Origin: Shigella phage ESh15
DNA length: 64,000 bases
Sequence record: ON528725
Reading direction: 5' to 3' (one strand)
Below, piece by piece: positions 56,444 to 61,352 of this stretch (position 1 is its first letter; every line of letters begins with the position of its first letter). Made by a program: the position numbers and the translations under genes. The notes beneath the pieces were generated by a model, which had not been told where the DNA came from, did no database searches, and was given only the letters and a program-made list of their open reading frames with translations.

Positions 56444-56938
56444 TCACAACTTATTGATATTTACTTTAATTCGCTTTCTTTTCTTGGAAGGAATTTGTTC
56501 TGGACCTTTATTTACGACTGCACCTGTAGTTGTTCCTGATGCAATAGCTTGAGGGCTGCCACCTGAATCGCCAGCAACCATATCCTCAAATAAAGGGAGT
56601 TCTTTAAATATTTCTTTCTGCTGTTCTTCTGTAATGTTATAGCGGGATGCTACAGCACTCCAGGCAGACATCATTGAGGCCATTCCATTAAGACCAGGAA
56701 CAGTACTCATCATTCGCTTCATTGAACGAACTGAAGCATGAAAAGGTGTATAAGCCGCTTTCTCTTCAGGAGTAGAAGGACGTTTAAGAACACTTCCACG
56801 TTCGTCGATTATTTTGGCTTCGTACGCTTTCCATTCTGTAAAAGGTTTTTGCATTAGTCGAATAAACTTATACGCATAAACTGAATCTATTGCAGTGTTA
56901 ATAATACCCATAGGTACCTCCTGAGTATATTTAATCAA
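56444..56938 (-). CDS. hypothetical protein (164 aa, 61.1 position)
   Basis: Track ORF immediately upstream of primase. Confidence 0.45.
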   Translation of the reverse strand: MIKYTQEVPMGIINTAIDSVYAYKFIRLMQKPFTEWKAYEAKIIDERGSVLKRPSTPEEKAAYTPFHASVRSMKRMMSTVPGLNGMASMMSAWSAVASRYNITEEQQKEIFKELPLFEDMVAGDSGGSPQAIASGTTTGAVVNKGPEQIPSKKRKRIKVNINKL

Positions 56939-57128
56939 TCACAAAGATCGCTTTATCACCGTTCGCATCTGTGACTTCATATGTAGTGTCTTCATAGTGT
57001 GGAATATTCCAAATTACACCATCATTAGCTTTTACGCTAATATGGCATTGGTGTTTTGAAACAACTTCATAATCTTCAAAACTTGTAAAAACACTAATTT
57101 TAGAACCAGTGCAAATTGCAGTAGTCAT
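56931..57128 (-). CDS. hypothetical protein (65 aa)
   Basis: Track ORF. Confidence 0.35.
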   Translation of the reverse strand: MTTAICTGSKISVFTSFEDYEVVSKHQCHISVKANDGVIWNIPHYEDTTYEVTDANGDKAIFVID

Positions 57129-57129
57129 T

Positions 57130-57789
57130 TTAACCTCGATTCATAAATGCATTAAATATTTGGTCATCAACAGAAATTTCTAATTCGACTTCAATTGCTT
57201 CAGCCTTTTCTTCAGGTGGTAATTCGTATCCACACACTACAATTTTTTCATCGATATCAAAATATACAGAAGCAATACGATTAATGTTACTTTCAGTTAA
57301 GTCTAAATCAACATCAACATCTTTTTGACCTACACTTAAAGGATAACTAATACGAGTTATTTTATTATCTTTAACAAAGAGTCCACCAACATACTCTGTA
57401 CTACGTTTGAAGTTTACACGTTTCCGAATTGAAAGATATGATACATCTTTACCGTGAGCTCGGCTCATAGGACATAATGAATAACTAGAATAAGAGATAT
57501 CAAATCCTACGCCTTCAACATGTGCCAGAGTATCATGAGTAAACCAATTATAGTCGTATGCCAAATCCATTAAATTATAATATGTGAACGGAACTGGATT
57601 AACGTCATACGTTGTACCTTTAAAATCTGCCCAGGCAACGATTTCGTTATCTTTAACAATTACAAAAATTACACCAATATGGTATCCGTTATTATTTTCA
57701 TTCGGCGTTATATTATAACATTGTGCATTAGGAAATTTACCATATTTAAACGGTGCGTTTTTGTGCATATAATAAAGCATATTATTCAC
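57130..57789 (-). CDS. protein at 61.2 position (possible AdfA anti-DarT factor homologue)
   Basis: 219 aa ORF immediately downstream of spackle, the position of T4 61.2; assignment by synteny and size only. Confidence 0.4.
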   Translation of the reverse strand: MNNMLYYMHKNAPFKYGKFPNAQCYNITPNENNNGYHIGVIFVIVKDNEIVAWADFKGTTYDVNPVPFTYYNLMDLAYDYNWFTHDTLAHVEGVGFDISYSSYSLCPMSRAHGKDVSYLSIRKRVNFKRSTEYVGGLFVKDNKITRISYPLSVGQKDVDVDLDLTESNINRIASVYFDIDEKIVVCGYELPPEEKAEAIEVELEISVDDQIFNAFMNRG

Positions 57790-58075
57790 CTGTGATTTCG
57801 GTTACGATATCTTTGTTATCGAAATTAGGGTCACAATACAAAACATAGTTGTACTGCATGATACCACCAGACTTAAGTTGTTCAACAACTTTATTAACCA
57901 TATTAGGACGGTCTCGTTTAGTGATGTTCATGATATCAGAGAAGATTTGTTGTTCAACATCTTCTTGATTTGCAGTCATTGACCACTCACAGAGGTCTTT
58001 ATCATAACCTGCCGTAACTGGAGCCGGTGCACATGATACTGCAAGTAAGATTGCTGCCAATGATAACTTTTTCAT
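57782..58075 (-). CDS. sp: Spackle periplasmic protein (61.3)
   Basis: 97 aa with signal peptide; GYDKDLCEWSMTA, DIMNI.KRDRP and LKSGG.MQYNYVLYCD match recalled T4 Sp. Confidence 0.75.
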   Translation of the reverse strand: MKKLSLAAILLAVSCAPAPVTAGYDKDLCEWSMTANQEDVEQQIFSDIMNITKRDRPNMVNKVVEQLKSGGIMQYNYVLYCDPNFDNKDIVTEITGE

Positions 58076-58104
58076 TTTAACTCCTTAGTTGATTTGATAG
58101 GACT

Positions 58105-58134
58105 ACTATACTATAGTCCATCTATAATGTAAAC
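58105..58134 (-). promoter_or_regulatory. early promoter for sp
   Basis: Plus-strand actata at 58105-58110 and gtaaac at 58129-58134. Confidence 0.45.
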
Positions 58135-58138
58135 AAGT

Positions 58139-58387
58139 TTATTCTTTTTCGCGAATAATAATTACTTGTTGAGGCTGCTGAGCAGATTTCTTTTCGGCAA
58201 CGATAGACCAAATTAAAGTTCCAATCCAACCAACCATCGTCCAGTTAAAGAGCAAAGATACAAAGAAGATTGCTGTTGTGCTTTTTGTGCCACGAATAAG
58301 TGCGATTACCCAAGGCAACATGTAAATAATGATTGAACCAATACCTGCGATTAAAACTGCTACTGAACTAGCTACGAATAATTCCAT
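58139..58387 (-). CDS. Imm-like superinfection immunity family membrane protein
   Basis: 82 aa, two hydrophobic segments; LPWVIALIRG...LLFNWTMVGWIGTLIWSI resembles the GWT..GW signature of that family. Confidence 0.5.
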   Translation of the reverse strand: MELFVASSVAVLIAGIGSIIIYMLPWVIALIRGTKSTTAIFFVSLLFNWTMVGWIGTLIWSIVAEKKSAQQPQQVIIIREKE

Positions 58388-58415
58388 GTTAATTTCCTCT
58401 TGATTTGTTATGTTT

Positions 58416-58445
58416 ATAATATCTTGTTTTAACTTTGATGTAAAC
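58416..58445 (-). promoter_or_regulatory. early promoter for Imm-like gene
   Basis: Plus-strand ataata at 58416-58421 and gtaaac at 58440-58445. Confidence 0.45.
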
Positions 58446-58448
58446 CAA

Positions 58449-58817
58449 TTAATTAAATTTGTTTAAACGTTCAATACACTGGACGTAGTTATTCGCGATT
58501 TGTTTCTGGGTAGGCTCTTTACCAGTTGTTTCAACATAGCGAATGAATGCGATTTCAGTAGCCTGTAAGCAATGTTCTTTAACGCGTTGTTCTTTTGACA
58601 ATGCTACAGTATCAGAATCACGATAACGTTGAGCATGGGCATCAGCTTGAATCATTCGATTACCTACAGTAACCGGGTCTTCCACTTCAACTTTAGGTTG
58701 GTTGTACTGTTTAACATTCGGGTTATAAATCAATTGGCCGACGTTATTAGGGATAAAGCCATGAGCACCACATCCAGTTAATCCGAATACCATTGCTAAA
58801 GCGATTAATTTTTTCAT
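58449..58817 (-). CDS. lipoprotein (122 aa)
   Basis: Signal peptide with lipobox LTGC (MKKLIALAMVFGLTGC); own promoter at 58846-58875. Confidence 0.55.
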   Translation of the reverse strand: MKKLIALAMVFGLTGCGAHGFIPNNVGQLIYNPNVKQYNQPKVEVEDPVTVGNRMIQADAHAQRYRDSDTVALSKEQRVKEHCLQATEIAFIRYVETTGKEPTQKQIANNYVQCIERLNKFN

Positions 58818-58845
58818 TTCAATTTCCTCTGTAGTTGATAGAAAG

Positions 58846-58875
58846 ATAGTAACACAGTATGTGGTGCTTGTAAAC
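58846..58875 (-). promoter_or_regulatory. early promoter for lipoprotein gene
   Basis: Plus-strand atagta at 58846-58851 and gtaaac at 58870-58875. Confidence 0.45.
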
Positions 58876-58888
58876 AGCTATTTTAAAA

Positions 58889-59098
58889 TTATCGAAAATC
58901 TGCTTCAAAAACTTTCTCGTCATTAATAAATGCTTTAACTAACGCGTTGTTCACTTCAGCAAGTTGTACCGTAACCCACTCGATTTCTTCACGATCACCT
59001 GATAACATGATATCTTTAGTGAACATCTCACCGCTTTTAAACCAGCCAATAAAAGTAACTTTAGTTAATTTGCCCATATTTCCTCGCAAAATGCCCAT
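58889..59098 (-). CDS. hypothetical protein (about 62-69 aa)
   Basis: Track ORF overlapping the 3' end of the Arr-like gene; start probably internal. Confidence 0.3.
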   Translation of the reverse strand: MGILRGNMGKLTKVTFIGWFKSGEMFTKDIMLSGDREEIEWVTVQLAEVNNALVKAFINDEKVFEADFR

Positions 59099-59391
59099 TC
59101 AGCATGATAAACTGTAGCACCTTTAGTATCATTCATTTGAACTACGTCTACCGGAGAAATTACTCGATAGAGACGTGGTTCGCCTCCATAAGAGCGTGCT
59201 GCTCGTCCTGCATAAATCTTTGCTAAACCGATATCTTCAGTAAAAAATACACGATTCAAGTTTTTCTTACGCCCGGTTTCAGACAGAACTCCTGTTTCTT
59301 CAGGAGGACAAAGCATGTTTTTGATGTTAGCTGAACTACTTGAACCGTGATAAAAAATCTTAAATTCTGCTTTACAATCGATGGTTTTCAT
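59065..59391 (-). CDS. minimal Arr-like (H-Y-E class) ADP-ribosyltransferase fold protein
   Basis: 108 aa; FYHGS, RVFFTEDIGLAKIYAGRAA and RLYRVISPVD align with my recollection of Arr blocks FYHGT, HIYFSALMEPAVWGAELA, GYIYIVEPTG; RBS GGAGA. Confidence 0.5.
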   Translation of the reverse strand: MKTIDCKAEFKIFYHGSSSSANIKNMLCPPEETGVLSETGRKKNLNRVFFTEDIGLAKIYAGRAARSYGGEPRLYRVISPVDVVQMNDTKGATVYHAEWAFCEEIWAN

Positions 59392-59409
59392 TTTGTTCTC
59401 CAGTAGTTG

Positions 59410-59446
59410 ATAGGTCTATAATAACACAACTACTGGAGAAGTAAAC
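59410..59446 (-). promoter_or_regulatory. early promoter inside a perfect 10-bp inverted repeat (PeSL-like cassette)
   Basis: CCAGTAGTTG at 59400-59409 and CAACTACTGG at 59427-59436 flank the -10; gtaaac at 59441-59446. Confidence 0.5.
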
Positions 59447-59821
59447 TTAAAAACGTAATTTATATATATCTGCGTTGATTTCGTTTTGGTTTGCGTCGTA
59501 TGCAATTAAACGAACCGCTTTAAATGGGTCATTCAATGCATAGAAATGATGGAACATTGCTCGAACGATATCACCATTTACGAGTTCTACCTGGATAGGA
59601 GAACCTTTTTCGAGTTGGAAATGTTCATAAGCTTTGATGGTTCGCAGATAATCAAGTTTTTGATTTCCGGCTCCAACGATTTGTACGATACGTTTGCCCA
59701 TGTTTTCCATACGAGATACAATAGTTTTAGGAGCAAGAATAACGTAGGTTGCCAATGGAGAAACTACTTCAACAGTTGTGTTTTCGGTGATTGCAGTAAA
59801 AATTGCTTGAGACATATTCAT
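59447..59821 (-). CDS. hypothetical protein (124 aa)
   Basis: Track ORF; RBS AAGAGGAAA; own promoter cassette at 59851-59880. Confidence 0.45.
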   Translation of the reverse strand: MNMSQAIFTAITENTTVEVVSPLATYVILAPKTIVSRMENMGKRIVQIVGAGNQKLDYLRTIKAYEHFQLEKGSPIQVELVNGDIVRAMFHHFYALNDPFKAVRLIAYDANQNEINADIYKLRF

Positions 59822-59883
59822 AATGTTTTCCTCTTGGTTGGTGTAAGTACATCATATCATGCCTAGAGGAAGATGTAAACCCC

Positions 59884-59903
59884 GAAAGGAGACCGAAGTC
59901 TCC
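59884..59903 (-). terminator. hairpin downstream of gene 41 (weak U-tract)
   Basis: GGAGAC-UUCG-GUCUCC hairpin 7 nt after the gene 41 stop. Confidence 0.4.
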
Positions 59904-59909
59904 TTTTTA

Positions 59910-61352
59910 TTAAAATTTTAACTCATTGGCTAAGCTATCTAGGTCAGCACGTGTTGCTTTGGCTTTACCTACGCGTTCCGTACGATTCACCTCTGCCTGA
60001 CGCATCTGAGCACCTGCGTTTTCATTTACTGTGTTAGGTGTGTTCATGCCTTCTTGCTCAATCTCAACCCATTTCTGATTGCCTTTACGTACACCCATCA
60101 AGAACTTGTTCCACTTATTCTTATCACCGTATCGTGATTTGATTTGTTTGATAAGTTGTTGTTCAGCTTGTGCAAGTTCTTCGGTTTCAATTACGGCCAA
60201 CATGAAATCTGCCGTTGCTGGTAAACCTGCTGATTCTGCAATATCACTCATGTTCATGTCTGAAGCATCCCATGCTGCACGTCCTACTTGAGCTGCAGTC
60301 CATAGAACTGTTTCAGATTCTACTGCTAATGCACGAAGTTCTTCTGCGATAGCTTTAACTAATGTGTAACTATTTTCAGTGTAAACTCTGATACGACAAG
60401 ACCCACAAATACCCAAGTAATCGACTATGATTACAGACGGCACAAAGTTCTTCTTGAGTTTCAATTCATTAAGCAATGCACGGAATGTATTAGCATTAGC
60501 TCCGCCAGTAGGATACTGTTTGACTACTAAACGTCCTAATGTGGATTTTGAACGCCATTTTTCCATCTTGGCTTTATATTCAGCATAAGATACGTTACCA
60601 TCATCGATATCATCGAGTGATACGTCAAGCATGTTTGCATCTATACGCTTAGCACAAACTTCTTCAGCCATTTCCATGGAAATATAAAGAACATTATGTC
60701 CTGTTTGAAGATAATCTGCAGCAAGTGAACAAAGGCCTAAAGATTTACCAACGTTAACACCGGCCATTAAAACGTTCAGTGTACCGGTTTCAGCACCACC
60801 TTTAGTGATTTTATTCAGAATGTTTAATTTGAACGGGACCTTACGTGCTTTATTTAGATAAGAAAGCCAGCGTGCTTCATAGTCTTCCATCCAGTCGTGA
60901 CCAACATAACTATCAAACGAAATTGAAAGTGCTTGACGCATAATATCAGGAATAGCTCCTACGTCAGGCATTTTCTTGTTACGTTGTTCTGGAGGTAGTT
61001 CAGCATTAGTCTGAATCTCAATGATTTTGGACGTGGCATTATACATTGCTTTTTGCTGGACATATTTCTCAGTTTCTTTAACCAACCATTCGTGGTCTTC
61101 AGGAGTATCAGCCAATTTTTCAATTAAGTCTGAAGTTCCTTTATATTCGGCTTCAGTTAAAGAACTGTTATCTAAAGCCACCTTTAATGCATTAATGGAT
61201 GGCATTGCATTATATTCGTTAACGTGGCTCTTTATAATTTTAAAGACGTTTTTTGCCGGTCCACGCTCAAAATACTCAGAATCCATATAAGGCCAGACCT
61301 TAGAAAAATAAGCCTGGTCGTATACGAGATGAGACAAAATAATTTCTACCAC
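59910..61352 (-). CDS. 41: replicative DNA helicase gp41 (DnaB-like)
   Basis: 480 aa; Walker A GVNVGKS; near-identical to recalled T4 gp41. Confidence 0.95.
   Translation of the reverse strand: MVEIILSHLVYDQAYFSKVWPYMDSEYFERGPAKNVFKIIKSHVNEYNAMPSINALKVALDNSSLTEAEYKGTSDLIEKLADTPEDHEWLVKETEKYVQQKAMYNATSKIIEIQTNAELPPEQRNKKMPDVGAIPDIMRQALSISFDSYVGHDWMEDYEARWLSYLNKARKVPFKLNILNKITKGGAETGTLNVLMAGVNVGKSLGLCSLAADYLQTGHNVLYISMEMAEEVCAKRIDANMLDVSLDDIDDGNVSYAEYKAKMEKWRSKSTLGRLVVKQYPTGGANANTFRALLNELKLKKNFVPSVIIVDYLGICGSCRIRVYTENSYTLVKAIAEELRALAVESETVLWTAAQVGRAAWDASDMNMSDIAESAGLPATADFMLAVIETEELAQAEQQLIKQIKSRYGDKNKWNKFLMGVRKGNQKWVEIEQEGMNTPNTVNENAGAQMRQAEVNRTERVGKAKATRADLDSLANELKF

Follow-up and report, generated by a model that had tools for sequence, protein, structure and literature searches.

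In phage T4, Imm and Spackle (Sp) each have a part in exclusion and in resistance against lysis from without (PMC6832632). Imm is a protein of the plasma membrane and takes part in exclusion and in withstanding damage from secondary adsorption, and T-even exclusion does not block adsorption itself (PMC6832632). Sp acts in the periplasm, where it binds the gp5 tail lysozyme and inhibits it allosterically, and a Cys29-Cys81 disulfide has been described in this protein (PMC7677548). As the original prediction had stated, the two genes occupy separate loci in T4: imm is in the 43-42 interval and sp in the 41-61 interval, approximately 6 kb apart. The arrangement is different in RB69, whose public record (AY303349) has shown the annotated order sp-imm-imm.1-61.4-dmd since 2003.

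The sequence analyzed here is a stretch of 64,000 nucleotides from Shigella phage ESh15 (record ON528725; hereafter the window), in which a row of three small envelope-protein genes next to an ORF at the 61.2 position had been flagged as a possible entry-blocking module. The best explanation, to which we give a probability of roughly 0.85, is that the window belongs to a Mosigvirus, i.e., an RB69-like T-even phage, and that the flagged stretch, which lies between genes 41 (helicase) and 61 (primase), is a standard early-gene region of this genus. It contains known genes that are predicted to be expressed independently, and their adjacency would stem from the relocation of a cassette within a variable region.

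Known genes in the 41-61 interval

All genes of the interval are encoded on the minus strand. In transcription order, helicase gene 41 (59910-61352) is followed by an ORF041c-like gene (59447-59821), an ORF040c-like gene encoding a 108-aa protein (59065-59391), and dmd (61.5; 58889-59077), the neighbor upstream of imm.1, which was recognized from its Pfam match (PF17587, 1.3e-20), the RB69 annotation, and spacer alignment. Then come imm.1, imm, sp, and adfA and, further on, two small ORFs and primase gene 61. The ORF list and profile matches indicate that the region 57130-58817 consists of four real ORFs, none of them a chance ORF, and the predicted row of Spackle, an Imm family member, a lipobox lipoprotein, and a 61.2-position ORF was borne out by Pfam, PHROG, and lipobox patterns. 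NCBIfam gave no matches for Imm or Sp, and only sub-threshold, signal-peptide-type matches for Imm.1. As a side observation, when the 108-aa ORF was considered as an Arr-like ADP-ribosyltransferase, Pfam returned only an E-value of 0.097 and PDB sequences no match; its single-sequence AF2 model (pLDDT 45) was unusable.

The Pfam comparison that had been proposed for the 82-aa protein (58139-58387) returned Imm_superinfect (PF14373; E 1.8e-15, 56.9 bits for a gathering cut-off of 27.9), with all of profile positions 1-42/42 aligned to residues 21-62, which contain the LLFNWTMVGWIGTLIWSI signature quoted in the original prediction. The protein also has a PHROG match, to 1039 ("immunity to superinfection"; 1.2e-30), and aligns with T4 Imm from end to end at 64% identity (53/83 identical positions, one gap, E 4e-37), including a non-membrane, cytoplasmic-type tail, QVIIIREKE. 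Its Kyte-Doolittle profile displays hydrophobic segments at 1-34 and 40-59, with a short basic loop (R32/K35) between them; it would be a two-segment inner-membrane protein, like T4 Imm, which stops superinfecting phage DNA from crossing the inner membrane. Since the 82-aa ORF sits directly upstream of sp, in the slot held by 61.4 in T4, it could alternatively be the 61.4 orthologue, its resemblance to Imm being a generic artefact of transmembrane helices, an identity that the original prediction had itself raised. RB69 possesses a separate 61.4 gene farther upstream, and the absence of any BLASTP match between the 82-aa ORF and T4 61.4 at E<=100, together with the identity to full-length T4 Imm, rules this candidate out, with next to no probability left to it.

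In addition, tblastn found imm at a single place per genome (1040 places in 1040 matching phage records), and there is no imm within the RB69 42-43 interval; the 82-aa ORF is therefore the only imm gene. Judged by homology, its product is the genome's single imm orthologue and not an additional Imm-like paralogue, so that the predicted family membership holds, while the suggestion of an extra gene does not.

The 97-aa product of sp (spackle, 61.3; 57782-58075) matches Pfam T4_Spackle (PF25676; 1.1e-42, 145 bits, cut-off 27) and PHROG 1586. It is 66% identical to T4 Sp and retains both Cys29 and Cys81 as well as an N-terminal export signal; by extension from T4 Sp, it is predicted to be secreted and to inhibit the gp5 tail lysozyme. 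Sp thereby resembles the MliC/PliC bacterial lysozyme inhibitors, which are also proteinaceous and periplasm-facing, but these are beta-sheet, loop-insertion inhibitors, whereas Sp has an alpha-helical bundle fold and an allosteric mode of action (PMC7677548).

A separate observation concerns the Spackle signal region. Its S14-C15 dipeptide is invariant in 21/21 sequences, whose identities span 46-100%, and the remainder of the signal peptide is variable. This dipeptide is preceded by A/L/V and A/S/V (giving AVSC, LASC, VASC, or VSSC) and fits a PS51257-like lipobox pattern. MliC is lipid-anchored, and the invariant lipobox-like motif of Sp, a pattern match only, would be a further point of likeness. 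The "mature" Gly23-Glu97 Spackle of the structural work is a recombinant construct (PMC7677548), and no paper presenting Spackle as a lipoprotein was found among the entries of a literature hit list. The motif prompts the question of how complete the "soluble periplasmic" picture of Spackle is.

Next to sp, the 61.2-position ORF has a mechanical extent of 57130-57789, with a GTG as its first codon (219 aa). For adfA (gene 61.2, anti-DarT factor A; 57130-57780), the ATG at 57780 is a likelier start, since the Pfam and PHROG matches start at residue 4 and phiC120 is annotated with the same start. The product matches Pfam AdfA (PF23813; 393.8 bits, E 2e-118) and is 65% identical to T4 gp61.2. AdfA neutralizes DarT1 only as the H164 allele, R164 being reported as non-neutralizing (PMC11257639); the window protein carries Arg at RB69 position 164, which is the RB69 wild-type allele, and not His164.

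Lastly, the 122-aa lipobox protein (58449-58817) matches Pfam DUF5481 (PF17578; 3.8e-09, 37.3 bits, cut-off 27) and PHROG 1754, a family of unknown function (2.5e-29). Its alignment with T4 Imm.1 spans 97% of the length at 32% identity (E 1e-18), and on these matches it is the imm.1 orthologue.

The window was assigned to the Mosigvirus genus from DNA identity. Over bases 56900-59900 it shares 98.5% identity with phiC120 and 97.3% with RB69, and its match to about 150 other Mosigvirus genomes falls in the 97-98.5% range. At least 80% of this stretch is covered in 152 phage records, and about 150 Mosigvirus genomes share the layout. Genes, order, strand, and spacers are alike in RB69, whose Imm.1 is 100% identical to that of the window and whose imm-sp and imm.1-proximal spacers are identical as well. 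RB69 differs by the presence of gene 61.4 between dmd and imm.1; the window lacks this gene, as do phiC120 and many other Mosigvirus genomes. The 41-61 interval is a variable region in this respect, with 61.4 present or absent and with ORF040c and ORF041c being genus-specific. The order sp-imm-imm.1 is also annotated in many other Mosigvirus records and is thus an already known, genus-wide, and ordinary layout. Our literature search found no paper discussing the adjacency of sp and imm in RB69. The three genes of the proposed triad are indeed adjacent, and the triad is the known imm.1-imm pair (found in T4, T2, and T6) located beside sp, as in AY303349. With four known families in an order already annotated in RB69 and other Mosigvirus records, the row of genes itself has little discovery value.

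Probable relocation of imm.1-imm to the vicinity of sp

The proteins encoded by the T4 genes are orthologous to those of the window (Imm, 64%; Sp, 66%; Imm.1, 32% identity), and the order and orientation, imm.1 and then imm, are shared. The T4 pair is located about 6 kb from sp, whereas the window pair abuts it; relative to T4, only the imm/sp junction is new. The pairing of imm.1 with imm is general: imm.1 is directly upstream of imm and on the same strand in the window, RB69, T4, T2, T6, the lineage of the metagenomic homologue P0005, and IMG/VR loci L007-L013, and it adjoins imm in every lineage that has it.

The position of the pair varies more. T4, T2, and T6 display the order 43-imm.1-imm-42, which is also that of a third, metagenomic lineage whose Imm.1 (P0005) is 47% identical to that of the window, and Gaprivervirus and fDHCT2 have 43-imm without imm.1. 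When 72 IMG/VR loci encoding Imm relatives were scanned for neighboring marker genes, imm was found directly after gp43 in 21 non-Mosigvirus T4-like loci, from about five lineages, and imm.1-imm-sp-adfA in only 2 loci, both from Mosigvirus. Because several other T4-like lineages share 43-imm and only Mosigvirus differs, the most parsimonious view is that imm was originally next to gene 43 and that its location in Mosigvirus is derived; this direction comes from parsimony over about six lineages and not from a rooted phylogeny.

Footprints of such a move are visible at both ends. At the new site, the promoter-proximal part of the spacer between dmd and imm.1 aligns with the T4 spacer between 43 and imm.1 (CTGTTTACAAG...TACTAT...CTATCAACTAC), which suggests that the cassette moved with its promoter. 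At the old one, RB69 ORF054c aligns with the T4 spacer between imm and 42, and the former imm.1-imm slot is occupied by ORF055c, a GutQ-like sugar isomerase gene that belongs to the arabinosyl-hmC cluster. Taken together, the imm.1-imm cassette and its own early promoter would have been transferred from the slot just downstream of gene 43 to the position immediately upstream of sp, probably by the promoter-cassette shuffling that is typical of the hyperplastic regions of T4-type phages.

The early promoter consensus TTTACW-N17-TAYWAT has been described for PeSL cassettes in T4-type phages (PMC4122927), and the sites in the three window spacers match it. A PeSL-mediated move is plausible. Among the spacers of the three genes, a clear hairpin exists only between imm and sp (predicted spacer fold, -15.0 kcal/mol). 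The other clear hairpin of the region is in the spacer between 41 and ORF041c; no clear PeSL-type stem-loop was found between dmd and imm.1 or between imm.1 and imm, and thus not at both borders of the cassette.

Expression signals and the question of a combined module

Minus-strand TTTACA-N17-TAyWAT sites, which are consensus matches only, are present in 3/3 spacers: upstream of imm.1 (58846-58874, TTTACA-17-TACTAT), of imm (58416-58444, TTTACA-17-TATTAT), and of sp (58105-58133, TTTACA-17-TATAGT), this last site overlapping a GGACTAT/ATAGTCC hairpin. A strong Shine-Dalgarno sequence lies downstream of each. The gap between imm.1 and imm is 61 nt with a promoter-like site in the window, versus 11 nt without a promoter in T4. 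A terminator scan did not detect any intrinsic-terminator-like site between imm.1, imm, and sp. As each gene has its own early-promoter-like site, nothing in these sequences indicates an obligatory imm.1-imm-sp operon.

This bears directly on whether the three genes form a selected, co-inherited entry-blocking unit, in which Imm.1 and Sp, in the outer membrane or periplasm, would cooperate with Imm in the inner membrane. Several features are in line with such a unit: the products are all predicted to be envelope-targeted, the genes all have early-promoter-like sites, imm.1 stays with imm in each lineage where it exists, both Imm and Sp aid exclusion as well as protection against lysis from without in T4, and the layout is fixed, with at least 95% protein identity, in about 153 Mosigvirus genomes. 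Common descent would, however, equally lead to fixation within one genus, and T4 imm and sp function from loci about 6 kb apart. The individual promoter-like sites and Shine-Dalgarno sequences similarly argue against such a unit, and the variability of the 41-61 interval makes a neutral landing site plausible. The analysis thus yielded no evidence for the combined module that had been put forward, and we consider it distinctly unlikely. Under the preferred reading, in which adjacency results from the relocation of the cassette, the three proteins would still act independently and in different layers of the envelope, as Imm and Sp do in T4.

Imm.1, a predicted exported protein that travels with Imm

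The lipoprotein signal of Imm.1 was assessed by the presence of a basic n-region, a hydrophobic h-region, and an L-[ASTVI]-[GAS]-C motif with the Cys at positions 15-35. It consists of MKK, LIALAMVFG, and then LTGC, with the lipobox Cys at position 16, and this motif is preceded by MKKLIALAMVFG; the residue at +2 is Gly. The signal fits both the classical and the PS51257-like patterns, and the lipobox anticipated by the original prediction is thus canonical. The T4 protein has LAGC in place of LTGC, downstream of a homologous imm.1 promoter region. The lipobox Cys is found in Imm.1 of the window, RB69, T4, T2, and T6, and in homologues P0004, P0008, and P0009. P0002 and P0005 lack it and carry an AHA-type signal-peptidase I site instead. 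An export signal is therefore conserved, and the lipid anchor is not and appears dispensable.

Two other cysteines, Cys83 and Cys114, are invariant among the homologues compared. In an AF2 model of Imm.1, computed from a 9-sequence alignment (pLDDT 62), the one confident part is a C-terminal helical hairpin, residues 75-120, which holds both of them. The product of imm.1 would then be a small, secreted, lipobox-bearing helical protein of the disulfide type. Its fold has no Foldseek match in the PDB at E<=0.001, and a profile search of PDB sequences retrieved only a chance match (E 7). Searched exhaustively with HMMER, 1.84 billion representatives yielded only 7 relatives, two word-indexed searches giving 3 and 6, and so small a family does not allow deeper inference. 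Between T4 and the window, Imm.1 diverges far more (32% identity) than Imm, Sp, and AdfA (64-66%), a pattern that fits either weak constraint or a partner specific to the lineage. Among T2, T4, and T6, Imm.1 is 98% identical, and no paper assigning a function to it was found in our literature search.

The original prediction had also suggested that the lipoprotein masks a receptor, in the manner of T5 Llp or Cor, by blocking adsorption or triggering at the outer-membrane receptor. Imm.1 does share with such proteins a small size, a lipobox, and predicted early expression and envelope targeting. The Gly at +2 of its canonical lipobox implies, according to the Lol rule, sorting to the outer membrane; as a small secreted protein with conserved cysteines, it is broadly like T5 Llp, and a divergence between T4 and the window that so exceeds that of the neighboring proteins could also be expected of a receptor blocker. 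On the other hand, T2, T4, and T6 use different primary receptors, and their Imm.1 proteins are nearly the same, so that Imm.1 does not co-vary with receptor specificity. Some Imm.1 homologues, P0002 and P0005, are not lipoproteins, in contrast to the T5 Llp/Cor type, and neither Pfam, PDB sequences, nor Foldseek revealed any similarity in sequence or fold to a solved lipoprotein or receptor blocker, Llp and Cor included. Moreover, T-even exclusion leaves adsorption unblocked (PMC6832632). Altogether, these data disfavor a receptor mask, which we hold to be very unlikely.

We infer instead that Imm.1 serves as an accessory of Imm. It may in addition be functionally tied to Sp, given that the AF2 model is only partly confident and that the PDB offers no counterpart in fold or sequence. 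That Imm.1 is a third component of T-even exclusion, a periplasm-facing and usually lipid-anchored partner of Imm, and that Spackle, with its invariant S14-C15 motif, is itself a lipoprotein, is a tentative idea that we regard as improbable. If both were true, Mosigvirus would have assembled a three-layer set of envelope defences within a single 1.1-kb block. As a protein that travels with imm, is exported, and is usually lipid-anchored according to prediction, Imm.1 is an obvious candidate for exclusion assays. The locus would provide a clean example of a promoter and gene cassette relocated between two T-even early regions, with footprints at both sites.

Conserved and variable cysteines in Spackle and Imm.1

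Residues 12-15 of Spackle (sp, window 57782-58075), the inhibitor of gp5 lysozyme, contain an invariant Ser14-Cys15 pair in lipobox-like surroundings, the variants being AVSC, LASC, VASC, LSSC, and VSSC. The pair is kept in 21 of 21 Spackle homologues (P0011-P0031; identity 46-100%), and also at 19 IMG/VR loci (L081-L099), amid variable flanking signal-peptide residues. An invariant Ser14-Cys15 within a varying signal peptide thus suggests that Sp may be a lipoprotein, and not a free periplasmic protein. Of note, the "mature" Spackle G23-E97 in the literature is a recombinant construct (PMC7677548).

Residues 26-37 of the exported Imm.1 protein (window 58449-58817) were compared between the window, T4, T2, T6, and four further homologues (P0002, P0005, P0008, and P0009). 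A further pair of cysteines (NCSSKFYNPNVKCY) occurs in the T4-type proteins and in P0002 and P0005, whereas the proteins of the window, P0008, and P0009 lack both at once, and there the region reads N-V/T/N-GQLIYNP-x-V/I-KQY. If an exported protein had an additional disulfide that was optional, its two cysteines would be expected to be present or absent jointly in this way.

Putative expression signals between gene 41 and dmd

Directly after gene 41, the minus strand of the 59822-59909 spacer (predicted fold of -22.8 kcal/mol) carries a strong hairpin, GGAGACTTCGGTCTCC, followed by T residues and then by a promoter-like sequence, TTTACA-17-TATGAT. By these features, the spacer is a PeSL-like unit, composed of a predicted terminator and a putative early promoter.

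Further downstream, upstream of dmd, an ORF on the minus strand (59065-59391) encodes a small protein of 108 aa that is absent from the T4 41-61 interval. Its relatives among T4-like phages (609 records, 60-90% identity) come from phages of Klebsiella, Acinetobacter, Aeromonas, Enterobacter, and other hosts. The protein matches the Pfam Arr-ms family (rifampin ADP-ribosyltransferase) weakly (E 0.097), and two records label it a putative ADP-ribosyl transferase; no match was found among PDB sequences, and AF2 run on the single sequence gave a model too poor to use (pLDDT 45).

The spacer preceding this ORF (59392-59446, minus strand; predicted fold of -21.5 kcal/mol) has a 14-bp hairpin, whose 3' arm includes the Shine-Dalgarno sequence of the ORF and which itself contains an early-promoter-like site, TTTACT-16-TATTAT. 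The ribosome-binding site would be masked by the hairpin in transcripts reading through into the ORF, and left unmasked in those begun at the internal site. Translational control through promoter placement is known in T4, and this layout would resemble it.

Alleles and gene content around imm.1-imm

AdfA (window 57130-57780, minus strand) has Arg164 in RB69 numbering, i.e., the RB69 wild-type allele. This allele was reported neither to bind nor to neutralise DarT1, while His164 does both (PMC11257639).

RB69 ORF054c (L004:7424-7534) and the T4 imm-42 spacer (L003:9721-9873) both code for a hydrophobic peptide, roughly 36 aa long and conserved between them, with the pattern …IY(Y/W)S(V/L)T(V/A)P(L/V)MIPT…GW…LQ(V/A)KYEC(I/F)N, which is not annotated in this "intercistronic" spacer in the T4 record NC_000866. 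The imm.1-imm pair moved, and the peptide-coding region remained at the gene 42 locus.

RB69 has gene 61.4 in the interval from dmd to imm.1; this gene is missing from phiC120 and from the window, where the corresponding spacer (58818-58888) has just 11 additional bases (TTTTAAAATAG) ahead of the imm.1 promoter region shared with RB69. Gene 61.4 is a presence/absence polymorphism inside Mosigvirus.
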